35,880 nucleotides of DNA from a virus. Of the stretch, positions 1,826 to 28,916 are shown one piece after another. Under the pieces are notes generated by a model, which searched no databases, had not been told where the DNA came from, and saw only the letters and a program-made list of their open reading frames with translations. The position numbers and the translations under genes were made by a program. The stretch lies in UHGV virus genome UHGV-0165226; one strand, 5' to 3'. How positions within the stretch are numbered: position 1 is the stretch's first letter; each line of letters opens with the position of its first letter.

Positions 1826-3502
1826 CTAAGCAACATGTAGTTCATCGTTGGCGGAAGTGGCTGCTTTGCGCTCCTGCTCAATAGCTAGAGACTCTCTATA
1901 TTCTTTCGCCTCTGCAAACATTGTCCAGTGGGCGTTGATGTTCATGTCTTCAATAACTGATTTGATTTCTTTTAAATTTACGTTAAAAAACTCTTTTCGT
2001 GAGTTAATTTTATTGACCTGCTTTTCGTTGAAAACTTTATGCAGATGGTTTTCTAATGATGGTGCATCATCACTATAAATCATCGCATGAACATCGAACG
2101 AAAAAGGAACACTAGCATCTCCGAGTTCACGAACACGATCAAGTGGTTCAAGGCGGCGTGTCATTCCAATTTTATATACATCTTCGCCAAATGAACCAAT
2201 ATTACTAATGATATAGACGTGGCCTGATCTGGTTTGTTGAGCCATAGAAATAGCTCGTTGATTTTTAGCTTCAGCTTCTTCATATTTTAACTGTAGTTCA
2301 GCTATTTTTTGCTCTAAAGCTAAGCGTTGTTCTTCATTTGCAAGCATAAGTTCTTTCGTTGCTTTATTTATAGCTTGCTGAATAGCTTTTTCTTCTTTTT
2401 CAGCTTCTTTTATCGCTTTTTCATATTCTCTACGAGCTCTTTCCTCTTCACGAAGCTGTTCTTTAATCCTTCTTTGCTCTTCTTTTTCTTCGAGCATAAT
2501 TTCATTAACTGCTACACCCCATTTTAGCTCGTTGAGTCTTGCCTGAAGATAGATGTCACTTATTTTTGCGGACCTAAAGGCAGAGCCATTGTAATTTACT
2601 AGTTGAAATGCATCTTTTATTTCTTGGGAAAGTTTTCCAAAATTGTTGTGTTTGACTTTTGATAAAATACTGTCAACTCTTCCATTGAAGGCATCCAAAA
2701 CAAAGTTTATGGCAGTATTACGCCTGTTTTGCTCAACATAATCACACGAAGCAGCTTTATTAGTTTTTATTAATGATTTGGTTAACTCTCTGGCTTTTTG
2801 TAATTCCTTGCCTGCATCTGTAAATTCATAATTTTCTGCCAGCTCATCAAGTACACTACGGTTAGGGATGATCCATTCATCACCATAACCTTCAATTTTA
2901 TTTTTCATTGATTTTGCAACTGCTTCATATTTTTCTGCAAACTCTTTAGCTTCATATGCTGAACCAGCAATCTCCTTTGCTCTTTCTTCTGCATCAGAAA
3001 TAATTTTTACTGCATTGTCATTAGCATTTGAGATTAGCTCATTTGCTTTATTATTAGCATTATCAAGACGTTCTTTGGCTTTCAGGCGTGCATCGCGAGC
3101 GTCTTTGGTGATTGCTATAGCTTCGCTATTAGCGTTGCTTATTGTCATCTGAGCTTGATAATTTGCTTCGTTTACTGTTTTAGCCGCCTTAATTTGGGCT
3201 TCATCTATTTTTTGCTTGGCTATTGAGTCCGCATTTTTTATCTTATTCTCTGCATCCATTACTGCGCTGTGCAATTCTTCGTATTGCCACAATGGTGCTG
3301 CTCGCCCTTCAAGCTCTGATAATTCTCGTACGGTCTGTGCTAGTTTTTCTTGATTTTCAACCAGTTGGTTAGAAAGGGCTATGTTGTTAGCTGTCAGGTT
3401 ATCTATAGCCGCTTTGTGTTTTTTACTTTGTTTAAATAATATTACAGCTAGAACAGGGGCGAGAAATGCTAATAAGAGTATAACGATGGCAAATGAATTC
3501 AT
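1826..3502 (-). CDS. Cargo protein: N-terminal transmembrane anchor, long coiled coil, C-terminal T5orf172/GIY-YIG-like domain (DUF4041-type architecture)
   Basis: 558-aa ORF, ATG at 3502 with AAGGA upstream. Hydrophobic N-terminus (FAIVILLLAFLAPVLAVILF), about 300 aa of K/E/A-rich heptad-like sequence, then GHVYIISNIGSFGEDVYKIGMTRRLEPLDRVRELGD...FDVHAMIYSDDAPSLENHLHKVF, which resembles the T5orf172/MUG113 motif. Strongly AT-rich relative to neighbours. Confidence 0.75.
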   Translation of the reverse strand: MNSFAIVILLLAFLAPVLAVILFKQSKKHKAAIDNLTANNIALSNQLVENQEKLAQTVRELSELEGRAAPLWQYEELHSAVMDAENKIKNADSIAKQKIDEAQIKAAKTVNEANYQAQMTISNANSEAIAITKDARDARLKAKERLDNANNKANELISNANDNAVKIISDAEERAKEIAGSAYEAKEFAEKYEAVAKSMKNKIEGYGDEWIIPNRSVLDELAENYEFTDAGKELQKARELTKSLIKTNKAASCDYVEQNRRNTAINFVLDAFNGRVDSILSKVKHNNFGKLSQEIKDAFQLVNYNGSAFRSAKISDIYLQARLNELKWGVAVNEIMLEEKEEQRRIKEQLREEERARREYEKAIKEAEKEEKAIQQAINKATKELMLANEEQRLALEQKIAELQLKYEEAEAKNQRAISMAQQTRSGHVYIISNIGSFGEDVYKIGMTRRLEPLDRVRELGDASVPFSFDVHAMIYSDDAPSLENHLHKVFNEKQVNKINSRKEFFNVNLKEIKSVIEDMNINAHWTMFAEAKEYRESLAIEQERKAATSANDELHVA

Positions 3503-3522: not shown

Positions 3523-4119
3523 TTAATTCGAGACTATTGTACTTCTTATACAAGCAACCACTTCAATATCAGAAAATGCACATTCAAAGCTATTCTCTGC
3601 TGTTGTAATTTTAATCATTCCTTTAGGAAGCCTTGTGATTTTTCGAATGGAATAGGTTCCGTCGATATTGATTAACCAGTTTCCATCAAGTACTTCAGAA
3701 AATTTTTGATCACAAATGTATGTGACGAGTCCATCCTGAACAACAATTGGTGATGAAAGGTTTGCAGGAAGAAATGATGAATCGAAGACATATGAACCGT
3801 CTTCAATCATTTTGCCTGCGGCAAGGCGAAACTTAACAAGCTCTTCTGTAGCTGCTGTCAGCGAGCTTTGCTTAAGGCCTTGTCCGGTAGTTAACCATTT
3901 GAGGGAGGTTCCTGTTTCAAGAGCACATTGGATTATCCAGTCAGCAGGAAATGTATCCCGCAAATACCTGTTCGCTAGTGTGCTTTTTGATACTTCCAAG
4001 TGATCAGCTAAAGCCTGTCGTGTCGTAAAGCCATAGGCTTCGACTAATCGCTCAATCGCAGCCTTACCACCTTTATTGGGATTTATTTTGATCTCACTTG
4101 GGTACTTTGATGTTGACAT
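3523..4119 (-). CDS. cI: Immunity repressor, phage 186 CI-like
   Basis: 198 aa, similar in size to 186 CI (about 192 aa) and unlike P2 C (99 aa). HTH-like region (TTRQALADHLEVSKSTLANRYLRD) plus a C-terminal domain. Divergent from the apl/cII operon. Confidence 0.8.
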   Translation of the reverse strand: MSTSKYPSEIKINPNKGGKAAIERLVEAYGFTTRQALADHLEVSKSTLANRYLRDTFPADWIIQCALETGTSLKWLTTGQGLKQSSLTAATEELVKFRLAAGKMIEDGSYVFDSSFLPANLSSPIVVQDGLVTYICDQKFSEVLDGNWLINIDGTYSIRKITRLPKGMIKITTAENSFECAFSDIEVVACIRSTIVSN

Positions 4120-10208: not shown

Positions 10209-10766
10209 TCACATAAACATCTGGATTTGCTCGTTTTTTAGTTGGTTGATTTTTTCGCGCAATCTGATCTTTTCATCAGCTTTTTCCAAAGAGGCTGGTG
10301 ACATGCAGTTAATCAAAGCGTCAAGGTGCTCTGGAGATTTGATAATAAAGAACTTTTTGTATTTATTAACAAAAACGACAGAGCATTTTTTACGTTTAAG
10401 AAGCTCAATCACGTTACTCAGAGTACCCGTGCTCTTCGTATCCCAAACCATTAATCCATAATCGGCTTCTTCTGCCATTTTGAGATCTTTCGCAGTGAAA
10501 AACGCGCGAGTGCCGGCTGCATGGCTAGTACTTACTACATGTACAGGCCATGAGCCAAGATTATTGCGCGGTTTTTCTGAGCTACTGAATACTGTGGCTT
10601 TTTTACATCCAAGTTCTAGCAATACGCGTTGAACAGATGAATCAACACCATTGGCATCACCAACTACAATACGAAAACGCGAGTTAACAATTTTTTTCAG
10701 ACGATCCACGATGAGTGTGTCAAGGTTTTTGATGGTTATTGAACCAGCAACAAATACCGTAGTCAT
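10209..10766 (-). CDS. SLOG/DprA-LOG-like Rossmann-fold protein (cargo operon, gene 2)
   Basis: ATG at 10766 with GGAG 6 nt upstream, 2 nt after the stop of the PRTase gene; about 185 aa. Core VFVAGS...IVVGDANGVDSSVQRV...ATVF resembles the glycine-rich nucleotide-binding loop of DprA/Smf/LOG (SLOG) proteins. AT-rich. Confidence 0.7.
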   Translation of the reverse strand: MTTVFVAGSITIKNLDTLIVDRLKKIVNSRFRIVVGDANGVDSSVQRVLLELGCKKATVFSSSEKPRNNLGSWPVHVVSTSHAAGTRAFFTAKDLKMAEEADYGLMVWDTKSTGTLSNVIELLKRKKCSVVFVNKYKKFFIIKSPEHLDALINCMSPASLEKADEKIRLREKINQLKNEQIQMFM

Positions 10767-10768
10767 CA

Positions 10769-11350
10769 CTATCTCCAAGTCAAAGCTGCAACATAAATGC
10801 TTCTAACCTTAGTATAATCGTTTAGCACAGCACAAGCAGCCTCCATAGATGCGCCTGTATGGTAGAGGTCGTCAATGATAAGGACATTCCAGTTGCCATT
10901 ATTCTCAATACTGTCATTAACAGAGAACGAATTACCCAGCGCCGTGATTTTCTCTTCTTTTGTATTCAGGTTCTTTAGCGAAGCCCCGCCGGGGGCTTTC
11001 AACAAGAGGTCATCGAAGCATGGTTTGCCAACTAGTTTGGCTAGTTCCTGAGCTATTTCGGTCACTGGCTGGCGTGCACGCTGATTAGATGCAGCCATTG
11101 GAACGATAAACCCGACATTGCTGAAATGAGGAAAGGCATGCTCTGCTAGGCATTGGGCTAAAGGCTTAACTTGTGACCAATCGTCACGGTATTTAAGCTG
11201 GAAAAGAGATTCGCCTACCTCAGTACGCTCAGTCTCAAACCGCATATGTCCCCACTCATCGTAACCAATGGGAATGCTGCGGATGCTGTGTTTATCCATC
11301 GCAAGACCTAATTCCCAATTTCCAACAATCTGTTTTATGTTGACTTTCAT
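10769..11350 (-). CDS. Phosphoribosyltransferase (PRTase)-like protein (cargo operon, gene 1)
   Basis: 193 aa, ATG at 11350. C-terminal NVLIIDDLYHTGASMEAA matches the type I PRTase PRPP-binding loop (hydrophobic run, two acidic residues, T-G-A-S). No N-terminal Cys4 zinc finger. Confidence 0.75.
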   Translation of the reverse strand: MKVNIKQIVGNWELGLAMDKHSIRSIPIGYDEWGHMRFETERTEVGESLFQLKYRDDWSQVKPLAQCLAEHAFPHFSNVGFIVPMAASNQRARQPVTEIAQELAKLVGKPCFDDLLLKAPGGASLKNLNTKEEKITALGNSFSVNDSIENNGNWNVLIIDDLYHTGASMEAACAVLNDYTKVRSIYVAALTWR

Positions 11351-11717: not shown

Positions 11718-13415
11718 ATGCATAGAATTGTTAAAGCTCATCTTGATAACTTCGTGAAAAGTCACGGTATTGAAAATCATCAAGAGGACACGCAGTTCGA
11801 GCTATTTTGTAATAAAGCTTTGCTGTCTTCTCGTATAAGTATGGATTATGAAATTGACGATGTAACAACCGGGGCTGGTGATGATGGCATGGATGGTGTT
11901 GCCATCATAATTGATGAAGAATTGTGTATATCTTCTGAAGATGCTACTTCAATATTTTCCTCATTACGTAAAAATCATGATGTTGATATTGTTTTCATTC
12001 AATCAAAGCGTAGTGAGTCTTTTGATTTAGGTGATTTTTTAAAGTTTAAAGCTTCCGTTTTTAGATTTATAGAGGATTCTCCTTACTTATGTGTGGATGA
12101 AATTCAAAAAAATGCAAGGGAAGTTTTTGATGTCATAATAAAAAATGTACCTAAGATAAGAGGTGGGCGACCAACTTTTACTGCTAAATATGTTGCAACT
12201 GGTTTATATAAAAAACCTAAAGAGTTAGAGAATGCTCGGAAGTTATTTGCAAAAGAAATTGACGAGTTGGGATATTTCTGTAATGTTAGCGTTGAGTTTG
12301 TTGATCGTGATGAATTAACACGTACTTGGATTGATACTTATTCAGTTGTCAATGCTGAATTGCCATTATTTAGTAATGCACCACTTCCCAAAATTAATGG
12401 TATAGAAGAAGCTTATCTTGCTGTCGTTAAAGCAAAGGATTTTGTTGGTAATTTATTGATGACGGACGAGGGGTCTCTCCGTAATCATGTTTTTGTTGAG
12501 AACGTCCGGGCGTTCTTGGGAATTGATAATCCTGTTAACGCATCGATTGCTGAGACAATTAAAAATAAAGATGCCGCTTCACGATTTCCTGTTTTAAATA
12601 ATGGAATAACAATTGTTAGTCCGGATGTAAAACTTCAAGGGAGTATTTTACATCTAGAAAATTTTCAGATAGTTAATGGCTGTCAGACATCAAATGTGCT
12701 TTACGAATGCCGCGATTCCTTAGATGATACGATGATGGTTAACTTGAAAGTCGTAGAGACATTAAACGAAGATGTTTTTTCAGAATTGGTTCGAGCGACT
12801 AACAGTCAGACTAAGGTTGATGAGACTCAGTTCTATTCTCTTCGTCCAATAATAAAGAAAGTAGAAGCGTACTTTGATACTTATGAAGGGCAGGATGGTC
12901 GTTTATATTTAGAAAGACGTGAAAGACAATTTATCGGTAGAGATATACCTGCAGTTAGAGTATTTTCAGTTCATATGGCAGCTAAATGTGTAGCAGCTAT
13001 GTTCTTCCGTCGGCCAGATCTTTCATATAGATACCCTAAAAAAATGTATGAATTGTTGGCTGAGAAAATATTTTCTAATGATACCAAGGAGATTGTATTT
13101 TATTCAGCATGTTTAACATTATATAGATTACACTTACTTACTTCTAATGCTGATATTCCACAAAATATCAGGAAGTATAAATGGCATTTAATGGCGGTAG
13201 TTGGTGCTTTAATTGCCGGAAAGGATGTGCCTAATTTTGGCTCTAAGAAAATGGATGCGTATTGTAATAAAATCATCACTGAAATGACAAAGCATGGTGA
13301 TAAAATAAAAGCTACTTTCCAGAAGGCTGTTGATATTGTTTTGTCAATTGATGATATCACTGATGATAGAATGAAAAGGCAAGCTATTTTAGAGGAAATG
13401 CTTGCCAAGATTTAA
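11718..13415 (+). CDS. AIPR-family (abortive-infection phage-resistance-like) protein
   Basis: 565 aa, ATG at 11718. Central motif VLNNGITIV...FQIVNGCQTS matches the AIPR family signature (NG...QT). Very AT-rich. Confidence 0.75.
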   Translation: MHRIVKAHLDNFVKSHGIENHQEDTQFELFCNKALLSSRISMDYEIDDVTTGAGDDGMDGVAIIIDEELCISSEDATSIFSSLRKNHDVDIVFIQSKRSESFDLGDFLKFKASVFRFIEDSPYLCVDEIQKNAREVFDVIIKNVPKIRGGRPTFTAKYVATGLYKKPKELENARKLFAKEIDELGYFCNVSVEFVDRDELTRTWIDTYSVVNAELPLFSNAPLPKINGIEEAYLAVVKAKDFVGNLLMTDEGSLRNHVFVENVRAFLGIDNPVNASIAETIKNKDAASRFPVLNNGITIVSPDVKLQGSILHLENFQIVNGCQTSNVLYECRDSLDDTMMVNLKVVETLNEDVFSELVRATNSQTKVDETQFYSLRPIIKKVEAYFDTYEGQDGRLYLERRERQFIGRDIPAVRVFSVHMAAKCVAAMFFRRPDLSYRYPKKMYELLAEKIFSNDTKEIVFYSACLTLYRLHLLTSNADIPQNIRKYKWHLMAVVGALIAGKDVPNFGSKKMDAYCNKIITEMTKHGDKIKATFQKAVDIVLSIDDITDDRMKRQAILEEMLAKI

Positions 13416-22261: not shown

Positions 22262-23131
22262 TCAAAACAATCTCAATAAATTATGATCAATCGTAAGCAA
22301 GTTGGAGATAACAAGTTTGTTATTATCAATATTGAATTTTTCTAATATTGCTGCTACAGCACTGGGGTAAGGTTGTGAAGCATATGGAGAAATGTATATT
22401 TTTTCGATTAGCTTTACAGGATCTGTTTTTATTCTTATCCCTTTGGGAGTATAGTTTTCGATGTCGCTATTAATAATTTTTGGTGTTATGGATAAACGTA
22501 CTTCATTTTCATGTGAAAAAGCTTTTCGTTTTAAAAAAGGAACCATTCTTCCGTTCACGACGCAATCTTCAGATGTTAGTTTTTCATCGAAATAATCAAT
22601 GTATTTTACTTCACTAATAGAGATAATCTCTTCAGATTGAAGTGAATCTATCAAGCGTGATATTGATGTTTGAATTGCTATTCCTTTGTTAGCATCTGAA
22701 TACAAACGCCACATTCCTTCTGACTCATGTTCATTTTGATGCCAACAATTCACTGTGACGGAGTTTAAAATCTTAAAATAGATAGATTCTATTTTTGGTA
22801 ATTGTGTATCCATCATTGTTTGCAACTTGGTGATTTCTGTTTCGGCTTTTTCATTAGAGATTCTGCCTAATAGTTCGTTTTCCCTGATACGCTCTACGGT
22901 ATCATTGAAATATGATTGTATATCATTAAACTTACTTTTGACGATGCTTGCCCACGCATTTAAGGCAACCTTAGGTAATAACCCCTCATATGGATCGCTA
23001 TTGCTGTAAGAACTAAGAGGAGAAAAATATAGCTCTTCTCTGGATAATATATCGATGAATTTATCAAGAGACATATAGCGCCACAGTTTTGTTTCAGGTT
23101 TTAAATTTGGACTAATTTGGAATTTATTCAT
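22262..23131 (-). CDS. Cargo protein with DUF2971-like N-terminal region, at the P2 orf30 site between S and V
   Basis: 289 aa on the strand opposite to the late operons; very AT-rich. N-terminus KLWRYMSLDKFIDILSREELYFSPLSSYSNSDPYEG resembles the DUF2971 signature as I remember it. Confidence 0.7.
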   Translation of the reverse strand: MNKFQISPNLKPETKLWRYMSLDKFIDILSREELYFSPLSSYSNSDPYEGLLPKVALNAWASIVKSKFNDIQSYFNDTVERIRENELLGRISNEKAETEITKLQTMMDTQLPKIESIYFKILNSVTVNCWHQNEHESEGMWRLYSDANKGIAIQTSISRLIDSLQSEEIISISEVKYIDYFDEKLTSEDCVVNGRMVPFLKRKAFSHENEVRLSITPKIINSDIENYTPKGIRIKTDPVKLIEKIYISPYASQPYPSAVAAILEKFNIDNNKLVISNLLTIDHNLLRLF

Positions 23132-25042: not shown

Positions 25043-25640
25043 TCTGCTGCCACCGGGTTCAACTTCACTGGAGCGACGACTGGCGCAAACCTGCAGCGGG
25101 ATTTCTGATCTGCAGGTGCCGCTGCGTGACTTGTGGAATCCGGCAACCTGTCCGGTCAGTTTCCTGCCTTATCTCGCCTGGGCGTTCTCTGTGGATCGCT
25201 GGGACGAGGGCTGGACAGAAAGCGTCAAGCGCCAGGTGGTGAAGGATGCTTTTTATATTCATCAGCATAAAGGGACCACCAGTGCCGTGCGGCGGGTGGT
25301 GGAGCCGTTCGGCTTTCTGATCCGCATTATTGAGTGGTGGCAGACCGGAGAGGCACCGGGCACGTTTCGCCTGGATATCGGCGTGCAGGACCAGGGCATC
25401 ACTGAAGATACCTATCTGGAACTTGAGCGACTGATAAGCGATGCCAAACCATGTAGCCGTCACATGATCGGCATGTCCATCAATCTGCAGACCAGCGGCC
25501 CGCATTGGGTGGGAGCCGCCAGCTATATTGGCGAAGAAATCACGATCTATCCGTATATCAACGAAACAATTATTTCCGGTGGCACCGCGCATGAAGGCGG
25601 GGCGGTCCATGTTATTGACACAATGAGAGTGAATCCATGA
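25035..25640 (+). CDS. I: Baseplate/tail protein I (P2 gpI)
   Basis: 201 aa; resembles P2 gpI (LLPPGS..LER...LRDLW.P.TCP...[15 protein letters not shown]). Confidence 0.9.
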
Positions 25641-27058
25641 GCACAAAATTTTATACCCTGCTGACGGATATTGGTGCGGCGAAACTTGCCAGCGCCGCCG
25701 CGCTCGGTGTGCCTTTAAAAATTACCCATATGGCGGTAGGCGATGGCGGCGGAACATTGCCAACGCCGGACGCAAAGCAGACAGCATTAGTAAATGAGAA
25801 ACGCCGGGCTGCGCTGAATATGCTGTACATCGACCCGCAGAACAGCAGCCAGATTATTGCTGAACAGGTGATCCCTGAAAACGAGGGCGGTTGGTGGATA
25901 CGTGAAGTGGGCCTGTTTGATGAGTCCGGGGCATTGATTGCCGTGGGCAACTGCCCGGAAAGCTATAAGCCGCAACTGGCTGAAGGCAGCGGGCGTACCC
26001 AGACCGTGCGTATGGTGTTGATTACCAGCAGCACGGACAATATCACCCTGAAAATCGACCCTGCCGTAGTGCTGGCAACCCGCAAGTATGTGGATGACAA
26101 GGCACTGGAGCTGAAGGTGTACGTGGATGACCTGATGGCAAAACATCTTGCCGCACCGGACCCGCATTCACAGTATGCACCCAAAGAAAGTCCGACGTTT
26201 ACCGGAACCCCCAAAGCGCCAACGCCAGCGGCGGGAAATAACACCACGCGGATTGCGACCACTGAGTTTGTTCAGGCCGCTATTACCGCTCTGATTAACG
26301 GTGCGCCAGCCACGCTGGACACACTGAAAGAAATTGCCGCAGCCATTAACAATGACCCGAAATTCAGCACCACCATTAACAATGCGCTGGCACTGAAAGC
26401 TCCGCTGTCGAGTCCCGCACTTACCGGAACGCCAACAGCACCTACTGCGGCACAGTCGGTCAACAATACACAGATTGCCACCACGGCTTTTGTGAAATCA
26501 GCAATTGCGGCAATGGTGGGTTCTGCCCCTGCGGCACTGGATACACTGAATGAACTGGCGGCGGCGCTGGGGAATGACCCTAACTTTTCAACAACAGTGC
26601 TTAATGCACTGGCAGGCAAACAACCGCTGGACAATACGCTGACTAATTTGAGTGGAAAGGATGTTGCCGGTCTTCTCGCATACCTTGGTTTGGGAGAAGC
26701 GGCAAAACGGGACGTGGGAACAGGGGAAAATCAGATACCGGATATGGTTTCATTTAGTGGTGTGAGGGATTTTTATGGAAAACAACTTTTGCCAGGAGGG
26801 TTGATACTCCAGTGGCTGACGATTCCATCAAGTGCAGCAGTCAAAGCTGTAACACTGGATAATGGTAATTATCAGCTGTCAGGCTATAAATGGCCCCAGT
26901 CATTTGGTGTCCTGTTTGCTGTGTTTGCCACAAAAGTTTCTGGCTCGACTAACGAAGCATACGCAATCTCAGTTAATCGTCACTCTACCGATGTAATTGT
27001 CACCTGGAATGCCCGTAAGGCTGATGATGTCCATATTTTAGGAATTGGGAAATTATGA
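25637..27058 (+). CDS. H: Tail fibre protein (P2 gpH-like); the C-terminal portion from about 26686 lies inside the invertible segment
   Basis: 473 aa; conserved gpH N-terminus ([18 protein letters not shown]...), then variable repeats. The reading frame continues across the left crossover site. Confidence 0.9.
26685..26709. repeat. Left 25-bp inverted repeat and crossover site of the invertible tail-fibre segment
   Basis: TTGGTTTGGGAGAAGCGGCAAAACG; its exact reverse complement is at 28193..28217. The outer edge resembles a Hin/Gin hix/gix-like site. Confidence 0.8.
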
Positions 27059-27474
27059 AAATGAAATGGTCCCCATCTGTTCAGGGATTTTTCTCTGAAA
27101 ACAACAGCGATATTCCCGATGATGCTTTCGATATTGAAGATGCTCTTTATTATGAACTTATGAATGGTCAGAGTACGGGGAAAATTATTATCAATAGCCC
27201 GGATAACTACCCTGTACTTACTGAATATCCAGCGAAGACACATGAGCAGGAAATAGCTGAAGCGGAGGGAATGAAAAATATACTTATTGAACAGGCCAAC
27301 GATTATATGAACAGTAAACAATGGCCTGGTAAAGCGGCTATTGGCCGGCTGAAAGGTGAGGAACTGGCACAATATAATTTGTGGCTGGATTACCTAGACG
27401 CACTGGAACTGGTCGATACTTCCGGTGCGCCAGATATTGAATGGCCTACACCTCCGGTAACTCAGGCCAGCTAA
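27055..27474 (+). CDS. Tail fibre assembly protein (Tfa, gpG-like), current-orientation copy
   Basis: 139 aa directly after H; C-terminus ...[15 protein letters not shown] is a conserved Tfa motif and resembles the C-terminus of the opposite-strand copy. Confidence 0.85.
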
Positions 27475-27841
27475 TCTCAGGAGCCGTCGAAGTGTCGACG
27501 GCTTTTACTTCTTTTTTGTAGTCCATCCAGGCAGATAGTTTTTCTTTATCTGTACTGCTGATATCACCAAGCATTAATTCCACCCGCCAGTCAGCTGTGA
27601 CATTATCGGCATGAGCAAGTAACTGCATTCGCTGATTTTCAGCACGTGCGACATAATCAATCGCCGGAGATTTCAGTACCGGTAAACCATTTTCATCTGA
27701 CGTGATTAATTTCCCCCCTTCCTGCTGTCCGGCAATTAATTCATTGTATAAGTCTGTACTTATCTCAACAATGTCAGCAGGCATGTCGCTGTTTATACCA
27801 TCAAAGAAAAAACCATTAGTCGATTTTGAGAAATAAATCAT
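27446..27841 (-). CDS. Alternative tail fibre assembly protein (Tfa'), expressed after inversion
   Basis: ATG at 27841 (minus); about 131 aa; C-terminus ...[17 protein letters not shown]; its 3' end overlaps the 3' end of tfa by 29 bp. Confidence 0.75.
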   Translation of the reverse strand: MIYFSKSTNGFFFDGINSDMPADIVEISTDLYNELIAGQQEGGKLITSDENGLPVLKSPAIDYVARAENQRMQLLAHADNVTADWRVELMLGDISSTDKEKLSAWMDYKKEVKAVDTSTAPEISWPELPEV

Positions 27842-27849
27842 AGATATAC

Positions 27850-28215
27850 CTATACACCGATTGCTACCCAAAAACAGGACCTTTCATATTTGACAATTTC
27901 TCCCTGAGATATACCGCCAACAATTATATAGAACTGTGATTTGCTGATATCAGAACAGTTCGCTATGCCCATTGCAGATATACCAGCCACCGACGTTGTA
28001 TGTGGCACAGCCAACAGCGCAAGTGAACGATTTGGGAATGTTACCGGGTAAGTCACCGTATAGTTTGATGCTCCACTGACAATACCCCACTGAATAATCA
28101 GACCTGAAGGGAGTTTTTGAAAACCCGTTGATGAAAGTGAACTGGCAAACGCCGCCATATCCGGAATTTGGTTTTGCTCGTTACCCACATTTCGTTTTGC
28201 CGCTTCTCCCAAACC
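27850..28215 (-). CDS. Alternative tail-fibre C-terminal exon (H' variable part), no own start
   Basis: Minus-strand ORF encoding [20 protein letters not shown]..., which parallels [20 protein letters not shown] in H. It is in frame across the right inverted repeat, so inversion would fuse it to the constant part of H. Confidence 0.7.
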   Translation of the reverse strand, partial: GLGEAAKRNVGNEQNQIPDMAAFASSLSSTGFQKLPSGLIIQWGIVSGASNYTVTYPVTFPNRSLALLAVPHTTSVAGISAMGIANCSDISKSQFYIIVGGISQGEIVKYERSCFWVAIGV

Positions 28216-28217
28216 AA
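28193..28217. repeat. Right 25-bp inverted repeat and crossover site of the invertible segment
   Basis: CGTTTTGCCGCTTCTCCCAAACCAA, exact reverse complement of 26685..26709; adjacent AAACCAACGTTTATGAAAA resembles a hix/gix half-site arrangement. Confidence 0.8.
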
Positions 28218-28284
28218 CGTTTATGAAAATGCAGAGATAATGGCTAACTGGCATCATCCCCGGTTTTTATTCAGGGGGATGATC

Positions 28285-28851
28285 ATGCTTATTGGCTATG
28301 TGCGCGTGTCAACAAATGACCAGAACACCGATTTGCAACGTAATGCACTGAACTGCGCGGGATGTGAGCGGATTTTTGAGGATAAAATCAGTGGCACTAA
28401 GTCCGACAGACCAGGGTTGAAAAAACTGCTCAGGACACTATCGGCAGGAGACACGCTGGTTGTCTGGAAGCTGGACAGGTTGGGGCGCAGTATGCGGCAT
28501 CTTGTTACGCTGATAGAAGAGTTGCGTCAGCGAGGCGTGAATTTCCGAAGCCTGACTGACAGTATTGATACCAGCACCCCAATGGGCCGTTTCTTTTTTC
28601 ATGTCATGGGTGCCCTGGCTGAAATGGAACGCGAACTGATAGTTGAACGTACCAGGGCAGGGCTGGCTGCAGCTCGTGCCAAAGGCAGAGTAGGTGGACG
28701 CCGTCCTAAGTTGACCACCGAACAGTGGGCACAGATTGGGCGTTTACTCGAGGCCGGAGAATCAAGACAGCGTATTGCACTGATTTTTGATGTAGGCGTT
28801 TCTACCATTTATAGAAAATTTCCGGCAAATAAGAGCAATGAATCTCCCTGA
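28285..28851 (+). CDS. Serine recombinase, DNA invertase (Hin/Gin/Cin/Pin family)
   Basis: ATG at 28285; 188 aa; near-identical in pattern to Hin (IGYVRVSTNDQNTDLQRNAL...LVVWKLDRLGRS...GRFFFHVMGALAEMERELIVERT...VSTIYRKFPA). Sits right next to the inverted repeats. Confidence 0.92.
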   Translation: MLIGYVRVSTNDQNTDLQRNALNCAGCERIFEDKISGTKSDRPGLKKLLRTLSAGDTLVVWKLDRLGRSMRHLVTLIEELRQRGVNFRSLTDSIDTSTPMGRFFFHVMGALAEMERELIVERTRAGLAAARAKGRVGGRRPKLTTEQWAQIGRLLEAGESRQRIALIFDVGVSTIYRKFPANKSNESP

Positions 28852-28898: not shown

Positions 28899-28916
28899 TG
28901 TGTGAATAACGGTACA
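28899..28916 (+). promoter_or_regulatory. Ogr/Delta-type late promoter element (TGT-N12-ACA) upstream of FI
   Basis: TGTGTGAATAACGGTACA, closely resembling the P/O element (TGTGTG...CGGTACA). Confidence 0.45.

Follow-up and report, generated by a model that had tools for sequence, protein, structure and literature searches.

The tail-fibre region of this genome raises the question of whether the prophage encodes a single receptor-binding tip or two alternative tips that are exchanged by inversion of the DNA between them, and, if the latter, whether the inversion system is still functional. The preliminary description of the window (the whole stretch of DNA analyzed here, 35,880 bp) had proposed an invertible host-range module. 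In our assessment, the locus is very likely a working DNA-inversion switch with two states, of the same type as the Gin, Cin, Pin, and Fin systems, which is carried by a P2/Fels-2-like prophage of E. coli.

The module is located between the tail-fibre assembly gene and FI, that is, in the G–FI interval, which in P2 contains a terminator and fun(Z); its earlier placement at the P2 Z/fun position was therefore accurate. The gene order around it, V-W-J-I-H-tfa ... FI-FII-E-T-U-D, is the same as in Fels-2, N17, and Cartapus and fits a Fels-2-type tail module of Peduoviridae. The late operon appears to be intact, including genes for baseplate, sheath, and tube as well as a late-promoter-like element downstream, and several defence genes are present on the same prophage.

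Inverted repeats and recombination sites

Two perfect 25-bp inverted repeats had been reported to flank about 1.5 kb of DNA. On re-inspection, the two arms proved to be exact reverse complements of each other, and they form the sole perfect inverted repeat of at least 16 nt in the whole window, compared to a chance expectation of ~6e-7 for such 25-nt inverted pairs. An imperfect inverted repeat wider than the 25-bp arms could also be recognized (26673-26747 / 28155-28229, 75 nt, 79%). In addition, the edges of the repeats, which had been thought to resemble hix/gix sites, could be aligned to recombination sites of the pix/gix/cix type that are inverted relative to each other. The features are as follows:

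26673..26698, plus strand: left 26-bp recombination site, pix-like, TTCTCGCATACC-TT-GGTTTGGGAGAA, within the H coding sequence, 1 mismatch to the family consensus
26685..26709: left arm of the perfect 25-bp inverted repeat, TTGGTTTGGGAGAAGCGGCAAAACG, exact reverse complement of 28193-28217
28193..28217: right arm of the perfect 25-bp inverted repeat, exact reverse complement of 26685-26709
28204..28229, plus strand: right 26-bp recombination site, TTCTCCCAAACC-AA-CGTTTATGAAAA, identical at 26 of 26 positions to the e14 site beside pinE

The perfect 25-bp repeat lies inside the pair of 26-bp sites, which flank a segment of 1,533 bp. When the window was scanned with a consensus derived from gix, cix, and pix, these two sites were the only matches (0 expected by chance). 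The inner half of the left site is identical to that of e14, and the site architecture is that of gix and cix. The centre of the right site is AA, inverted relative to the TT of the left site, and the two sites are in inverted orientation. A shufflon with additional sites was ruled out, since the window contains two full sites only and the half-site matches at 10438 and 14850 are no more than chance would give.

Two alternative fibre tips and their chaperones

The open reading frames match the proposed content of the segment, namely the C-terminus of H and tfa on the plus strand and an alternative H exon and tfa′ on the minus strand:

25637-27058, plus strand: tail-fibre gene H, whole ORF, 473 aa
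25637..26684, plus strand: constant N-terminal part of H, aa 1-350, as far as the crossover point; Pfam Phage_tail_fib N-terminal domain, E=3e-65
26687..27058, plus strand: tip A, the variable H C-terminus expressed at present, aa 351-473, beginning at the GLGEAAKR junction motif
27055..27474, plus strand: tfaA, tail-fibre assembly chaperone paired with tip A; Pfam Caudo_TAP, E=3e-22; phrog_188, E=1e-50
27479..27506, plus strand: terminator-like hairpin and T-run directly after tfaA, with a 12-pair stem and a T-rich tail
27446..27841, minus strand: tfaB, chaperone paired with tip B, silent in the present orientation; Pfam Caudo_TAP, E=1.8e-24
27850..28215, minus strand: tip B, promoterless alternative C-terminal exon of H; Pfam Gp53-like_C, E=2e-15

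The frame of H had been said to be preserved across both repeats. Inversion of the segment in silico agreed with this: the constant part was unaltered, H stayed in frame, and the fibre changed from 473 aa to 471 aa, with tip B fused to constant H. The two forms have aa 1-358 in common. Both tips join constant H in frame and each is followed by its own Caudo_TAP chaperone gene, which bears out the suggestion that inversion would swap the fibre tip together with its chaperone.

The constant part of H is 85% identical to H of Fels-2 and 54% identical to that of P2. Tips A and B show 60% identity over their first 43 aa and are unalignable further on; despite this divergence, both belong to phrog_2557 and the gp53-like C-terminal domain (for tip A, phrog_2557 was detected with E=1.5e-34). 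Among sequenced phages, tip A was found in Cartapus only. The possibility that tip A has a new fold was considered unlikely, because phrog_2557 is common to tips A and B and tip A has a match, albeit sub-threshold, to Gp53-like_C (E=0.003). A search of NCBIfam returned no match for any of the fibre genes. The chaperone genes tfaA and tfaB face each other, and their products are 33% identical; tfaA is 49% identical to TfaP of e14. The hairpin after tfaA, which overlaps the 3′ coding end of the opposite-strand tfaB, is predicted to act as a terminator.

The invertase and a candidate recombinational enhancer

The gene following the segment had been described as a Hin/Gin-like serine invertase, and the product is indeed a full-length protein with Resolvase and HTH_7 domains whose nearest relatives are Gin, Cin, Pin, and Fin. 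The 5′ end of the gene contains a probable enhancer:

28285..28851, plus strand: serine DNA invertase of the Pin/Gin/Cin/Fin type, 188 aa; Pfam Resolvase, E=2e-53, and HTH_7, E=1e-15
28303..28374, plus strand: probable recombinational enhancer, nt 19-90 of the invertase gene; gap-free alignment to the annotated P1 cin enhancer, 56/72
28306-28320 and 28355-28369: candidate Fis cores in the enhancer stretch, G-N13-C

In Pfam, the Resolvase domain covers aa 3-135 and HTH_7 aa 138-181. The protein belongs to phrog_125 ('DNA invertase', E=9e-101), matches Gin in PDB 3UJ3 over residues 1-184 (E=8e-93), and aligns residue for residue with Gin in PDB 3UJ3/4M6F, and NCBIfam returned only sub-threshold matches, to other serine recombinases. 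Its identity is 100% to the Cartapus enzyme, 98.9% to that of N17/N24, 86% to Fels-2 Fin, 85% to e14 PinE, 77% to Cin, and 74% to Gin. All of the active-site residues, Y5, R7, S9 (catalytic), D64, R65, and R68, are intact, including the serine whose mutation had been named as a sign that would speak against a working switch. The enzyme also has the wild-type residues H106 and M114, positions of known activating, Fis-independent mutations in Hin and Gin; PDB 3UJ3/4M6F has Val at the position aligned with M114. These wild-type residues would fit an enzyme that is regulated and not hyperactive.

The two G-N13-C cores are near-invariant in pinE, gin, and cin. Conservation of synonymous codons is 54% in the enhancer stretch versus 41% in the rest of the gene (p ~0.009, from pairs that are non-independent), and the distance from the enhancer to the site centre is 96.5 bp here versus 95.5 bp in e14 and Mu. 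In the register assigned in this analysis, the centres of the candidate Fis cores are separated by 49 bp. Since the spacing of the Fis sites in Hin is 48 bp, one of the candidate cores may be off register by 1. Judging from this sequence conservation, the stretch is a probable enhancer, and the candidate cores may bind Fis.

A hairpin of -26.6 kcal/mol (28240-28299, z = -3.1) extends over the ribosome-binding site and start codon of the invertase gene. A role as a conserved translational control was set aside, as the hairpin is absent from e14, Mu, and Fels-2.

Inversion in related genomes

Copies of the module that are ~97% (96-98%) identical are present in complete E. coli genomes, 12 records having the orientation of the window end to end and 6 the inverted one. 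Over 14,702 bp, a single SNP and an exact inversion of the segment are all that separates the near-clonal isolates N17 and N24; this inversion is bounded by the same repeat as in the window. These genomes demonstrate that the segment really inverts in near-identical prophages, and inversions in P2-like prophages and e14 have been demonstrated by sequencing and PCR (PMC4272514; PMC12529663). Based on these relatives, we infer that the copy in the window would be active as well, and the switch is probably working. N17 and N24 lack an extra 289-aa gene that the window prophage has between S and V.

Proposed mechanism

In the mechanism that we propose, invertase dimers would bind the two 26-bp sites, one in gene H and the other just upstream of the invertase gene, and would assemble into an invertasome together with host Fis on the enhancer that lies within the first part of this gene. 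Both sites would be cut at the central AA/TT dinucleotide via Ser9, and rotation and religation would leave the 1,533-bp segment flipped. In the present orientation, constant H (aa 1-350) would be produced with tip A, followed by tfaA, and in the inverted orientation with tip B, followed by tfaB. A population of lysogens would then release virions with two receptor-binding tips, which may serve as host-range bet-hedging. The reaction is expected to depend on Fis, and tips A and B may well confer different host ranges. No host-range phenotype has been documented for the Cartapus lineage, because no indicator strain was found for Cartapus (PMC9928086).

Alternative explanations

One different view, which is unlikely but compatible with a host-range role, holds that the switch mainly benefits the lysogen and not the virion, either because one orientation blocks other phages or because the invertase acts in trans on pix sites of the host. 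In its favour, all 26 bp of the right site match e14 pix, the inner half-sites occur in both elements, and the prophage carries several defence genes. PinQ (38% identical to PinE) and PinE each invert the e14 segment with a phage-resistance phenotype, and e14 StfE2 is reported to block other phages after inversion by PinQ (PMC12529663). However, whereas e14 is a truncated remnant, H encodes a full fibre of 473 aa and belongs to a late operon that appears intact; moreover, P2-type late genes are not expressed in lysogens according to textbook knowledge, and the sequence holds no sign of expression of the H tips in the lysogen.

Because the right site is identical to e14 pix, the switch might, in addition, be part of a host-wide invertase network, an idea that we offer only tentatively. 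The invertase of the prophage could flip the e14 P segment and with it the reported StfE2 anti-T2 phenotype, and PinE or PinQ could set the fibre state of the prophage. If this were true, the host range of the prophage and the phage resistance of the host would be coupled.

It is quite improbable that the repeats and duplicate cassettes are a frozen remnant of a once-active switch whose copy in the window no longer inverts. Broken relatives do exist, such as FORC_081, in which IS26 interrupts the invertase gene at nt ~56, within the enhancer. In the window, however, the invertase ORF is intact and encodes a protein 100% identical to that of Cartapus and 98.9% identical to that of N17/N24, in which inversion of the segment is very recent. 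Neither the two sites nor the 25-bp repeat nor the enhancer cores are damaged, and both silent genes are still open.

Lastly, RecA-dependent homologous recombination between the 25-bp perfect (75-bp imperfect) repeats, with the invertase being incidental, is scarcely credible: although the N17/N24 junctions fall within the identical repeat, so that the exchange point is not locatable from sequence, 25 bp is the textbook lower limit for RecA-mediated exchange, the repeats coincide with pix-type 26-bp sites whose outer half-sites, outside the repeat, still fit the consensus, a dedicated invertase adjoins the repeats and has an enhancer that is conserved in both sequence and spacing, and e14, which has the same site, is locked by deletion of pinE (PMC12529663).

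Comparison with known inversion systems

The two-state inversion switch that we favour has several known counterparts. Among the closest is that of Cartapus (prophage 4 of E. coli LF82; Peduoviridae, Elveevirus; NC_070909), whose 2.7-kb module has 97.5% identity to that of the window and the same orientation, with an invertase protein and both tips that are 100% identical; the window prophage differs in being mosaic elsewhere. The genes of this module are annotated as tail fiber (x2), tail fiber assembly (x2), and 'DNA-invertase, Mu Gin homolog', and the Cartapus paper mentions neither the invertase nor inversion.

Fels-2 of Salmonella Typhimurium LT2, with the invertase Fin (STM2702), shows an identical gene order: H, tfa, tfa′ (opposite strand), H′ (opposite strand), invertase, and FI. 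Fin is reportedly a documented active invertase (Kutsukake et al. 2006, cited in PMC4272514). Fels-2 differs in its host and in having its own tips and chaperones, which are different and longer, and the central dinucleotide in its site region is GA as in Mu, compared to AA in the window.

The P segment of e14 (E. coli K-12) resembles the window in that its invertase gene lies to the right of the segment and is not part of it, the 26-bp site nearer to the invertase and the inner half-sites have the same sequence, and the spacing between site and enhancer agrees within 1 bp. In contrast, e14 is what remains of a lambdoid phage, defective and with truncated fibre genes, and its segment measures 1,797 bp, whereas the window has a 1,533-bp segment and a P2-like tail module that is apparently complete.

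The Mu G/Gin and P1 C/Cin systems have in common with the window a constant fibre N-terminus, two C-termini each with a chaperone, 26-bp sites, and an enhancer (a probable one in the window) within the 5′ part of the invertase coding sequence. However, their segments are 3-4.2 kb long with variable parts of ~320-500 aa, compared to tips of ~120 aa in the window. The central dinucleotide is TC/GA in Mu, cin is located on the other side of the segment in P1, and both phages belong to families other than that of the window prophage.

A similar situation, to judge by description, exists in the P2-like prophages of EPEC E2348/69 (Goldberg et al. 2014, PMC4272514), in which orientations of the tail-fibre segment were found to co-exist by sequencing and PCR. 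One locus is a simple two-variant switch, as in the window, whereas the second is a three-repeat shufflon with four variants, in contrast to the exactly two sites of the window. The Hin/hix system of Salmonella flagellar phase variation shares the enzyme subclass, the 26-bp sites, the enhancer (Fis-dependent in Hin and a candidate in the window), and the ATTT and TAATG tracts between the Fis sites (PMC3798978). It differs in that a promoter is flipped, the hin gene is inside the invertible segment, and the output is a choice of flagellin, not of fibre tip.

Implications for annotation and host-range prediction

The system is not new: Fels-2 has the same layout, the Cartapus module is annotated, and experiments have demonstrated inversion in P2-like prophages (PMC4272514). 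It is a textbook switch of the Gin/Pin type with near-identical copies in public databases, and no new mechanism is added. The natural record of inversion in the Cartapus lineage (N17 versus N24) and the identity of a site with e14 pix are mildly new. The main value lies in annotation: what annotation pipelines list on the minus strand as a 'gp53-like domain-containing protein' or 'hypothetical protein' is no gene of its own but an alternative exon of H that lacks a promoter. The tail-fibre protein of such prophages comes in two forms, and prediction of host range from a single assembly is therefore incomplete. Likewise, assemblies of the same clone may legitimately differ by an inversion at this segment.

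Organization and recombination sites of the tail-fibre switch

As a whole, the window represents an E. coli prophage of the P2 type; a TetR-family host gene and the integrase lie leftmost, after which come V-W-J-I-H and then FI-FII-E-T-U-D. The parts of the switch are as follows.

25637-27058, +, H, tail-fibre gene with a Phage_tail_fib N-terminal domain (C-terminus in the present orientation, tip A)
26673-26698, left 26-bp recombination site, TTCTCGCATACC-TT-GGTTTGGGAGAA
27055-27474, +, tfaA, Caudo_TAP chaperone paired with tip A
27446-27841, -, tfaB, Caudo_TAP chaperone paired with tip B
27479-27506, strong hairpin with a T-run, 3′ of tfaA and within the coding end of tfaB
27850-28257, -, ORF with tip B (the alternative H C-terminal exon), Gp53-like_C domain
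28204-28229, right 26-bp recombination site, TTCTCCCAAACC-AA-CGTTTATGAAAA
28285-28851, invertase, 188 aa, Resolvase and HTH_7 domains

The preliminary description had proposed perfect 25-bp inverted repeats with hix/gix-like outer edges, and both proposals held on re-inspection. The segments 26685-26709 (TTGGTTTGGGAGAAGCGGCAAAACG) and 28193-28217 are exact reverse complements and form the only perfect inverted repeat of at least 16 nt in the whole 35,880-bp window (chance expectation for 25-nt perfect inverted pairs, ~6e-7). Their edges fall within the two 26-bp sites. Nothing else in the window fits a consensus derived from gix, cix and pix (shuffled sequences gave 0 matches), and the two sites are mutually inverted, since their central dinucleotides read TT and AA on the plus strand. 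Imperfect similarity of the arms runs on across 75 nt (79%) because both code for one conserved peptide (...NQIPDM). In e14, the site beside pinE is identical to the right site (26/26), the inner half-sites are identical as well, and the published repeat (TTGGTTTGGGAGAAGG, PMC12529663) equals that of the window over the latter's first 15 nt. An additional role of the module at the lysogen level, either in defence or in crosstalk with e14 via the common site, is a speculative possibility (PMC12529663).

Fibre tips and chaperones

The H junction peptide recurs in the minus-strand ORF from codon 15 on. In-silico inversion of 26685-28217 converts the 473-aa H into a 471-aa protein with residues 1-358 unchanged and a new tip, bearing out the suggestion that the frame is kept, and tfaB then begins 8 nt past this tip. 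Tips A and B share 60% identity across 43 aa and are unalignable beyond that; however, since both belong to phrog_2557 (E ~1e-34 each) and tip A gives a sub-threshold match to Gp53-like_C, they are divergent forms of a single receptor-binding domain. The two chaperones are 33% identical. The hairpin at 27479-27506 is a candidate terminator that can be used in the present orientation only; after inversion, late transcription would no longer meet it and might continue towards the invertase gene.

By chance, the silent tip-B exon is preceded in frame by an ATG (28257, past the right site), so that annotation pipelines call a separate 135-aa "gp53-like domain-containing protein" (in the other orientation, they label the exon "hypothetical protein"); this free-standing gene call is most likely an artefact of annotation. 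Within constant H, one stretch is duplicated in tandem (26189-26264 and 26411-26486, period 222 nt or 74 aa), and residues 259-350 give a second alignment to residues 185-276 of Fels-2 H, indicating a fibre shaft one repeat longer than that of Fels-2.

Inversion in related prophages

In complete E. coli genomes, a query in the window orientation matched 12 records over all 2,701 bases (96-98% identity), and the inverted query matched six other records end-to-end (97%). E. coli N17 and N24 belong to one series of cerebrospinal fluid (CSF) isolates and carry the prophage at an identical chromosomal position; across 14,702 bases they differ by one SNP and an exact inversion, 1,533 bases long, with the same 25-bp repeat at its ends. 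In a prophage with an invertase 98.9% identical to that of the window (2/188 residues differ), the segment thus flips in vivo, and we infer that the window's own copy is active. That this copy is a frozen remnant that no longer inverts is unlikely, because every part is intact and near-identical copies flip.

Two related copies have been altered. In E. coli FORC_081 (L011, 2386-3780), IS26 lies ~56 nt into the invertase gene, within the enhancer stretch, at a point equivalent to window ~28333-28340; these bases occur on both IS26 flanks, fitting an 8-bp target duplication, and this copy is expected to be locked, barring action in trans by another Pin-type enzyme. In E. coli APEC_AN-25, constant H, tfaB, tip B and the invertase are the same (96.5% identical), whereas an unrelated cassette stands in place of tip A plus the initial half of tfaA (window 26763-27280). 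Cassette exchange takes place between the junction motif and the chaperone C-terminus, both of which are conserved. In that record, H is broken into two ORFs.

Invertase and putative enhancer

The enzyme, described earlier as a Hin/Gin-like serine invertase, indeed aligns end-to-end with Mu Gin (PDB 3UJ3/4M6F, E=8e-93) and keeps Y5, R7, S9, D64, R65 and R68. Its identity to other invertases is 100% (Cartapus, an E. coli LF82 prophage), 86% (Fels-2 Fin), 85% (e14 PinE), 77% (P1 Cin) and 74% (Gin). Homologues are present across many phage records.

The Cin enhancer is annotated in the P1 record at cin nt 19-90, and the equivalent stretch of the window (28303-28374) aligns with it without gaps (56/72). 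Two G-N13-C 15-mers, the candidate Fis cores (28306-28320 and 28355-28369), are near-invariant in the window, pinE, gin and cin, and the ATTT and TAATG tracts described for Hin (PMC3798978) also occur between them. Codons for the same amino acid are identical in 54% of cases inside this stretch vs 41% outside (Fisher p ~0.009, with non-independent pairs), which weakly favours a conserved enhancer. Measured from the crossover centre, the first candidate core is 96.5 bp away in the window vs 95.5 bp in e14 and Mu. RecA-mediated inversion between the repeats, with which the junction sequences alone are compatible, is very improbable, as it leaves unexplained why the outer half-sites fit the consensus, why an invertase lies next to them and why the enhancer geometry is conserved. 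Site-specific inversion by the invertase is preferred, and the proposed invertible tail-fibre switch is confirmed as an observation and supported in its interpretation by the repeats, sites, in-frame flip, enzyme and N17/N24 inversion.

TGGCAT(C/G)AT (28249-28257) is invariant 5′ of the invertase genes in the window, N17, e14, Mu and Fels-2, while the surrounding non-coding sequence diverges. As it has the form of an extended -10 element (TGn + CATCAT), the invertase promoter may directly adjoin the recombination site. In a predicted RNA hairpin (28240-28299, +, -26.6 kcal/mol, z = -3.1), the Shine-Dalgarno and start codon of the invertase base-pair with sequence 5′ of them; the hairpin overlaps a weak terminator-like motif (28246-28265) and lacks a conserved counterpart in e14, Mu and Fels-2.

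Relation to known systems and other genes

Fels-2 has the same order as the window (H, tfa, tfa′, H′, invertase, FI), and Cartapus carries the same module (97.5% identity, annotated "DNA-invertase, Mu Gin homolog"), with no discussion of the invertase or inversion in the Cartapus paper. Co-existing orientations were found by sequencing and PCR in P2-like prophages, Mu and e14 (Goldberg et al., PMC4272514). Together with the homologous invertases, these observations mean that this type of switch is already known, and very nearly this instance of it; its value lies in annotation and in predicting host range from prophage sequences. As had been noted, the module sits at the P2 Z/fun position, an interval occupied in P2 by the V-operon terminator and fun(Z). 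A TGT-N12-ACA element (28899-28916) lies 94 nt 5′ of FI, about where P2 has an annotated activator site (91-97 nt upstream), which suggests that the module ends ahead of the late F promoter.

Several other genes resemble defence genes. The integrase (691-1743) and CI repressor (3523-4119) flank a 558-aa gene (1826-3502, -) with a match to the PD-Lambda-1 defence protein (PADLOC E=2e-120; Pfam DUF4041 and T5orf172/MUG113). A 565-aa AbiU/AIPR abortive-infection-type gene (11718-13415, +; PADLOC E=4e-112) adjoins the portal gene, in the slot of hypothetical gene STM2723.1 in Fels-2. A 289-aa DUF2971/PDC-S31 candidate (22262-23131, -; PADLOC E=2e-24) separates tail genes S and V as an insertion that N17 and N24 lack, their S-V gap being just ~70 bp. 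Two adjoining small genes (10209-11350, -; 189 and 193 aa), the second with weak ShosT/PsyrT-like matches (E ~1e-8) and the first with none, may form a two-gene toxin-type module.
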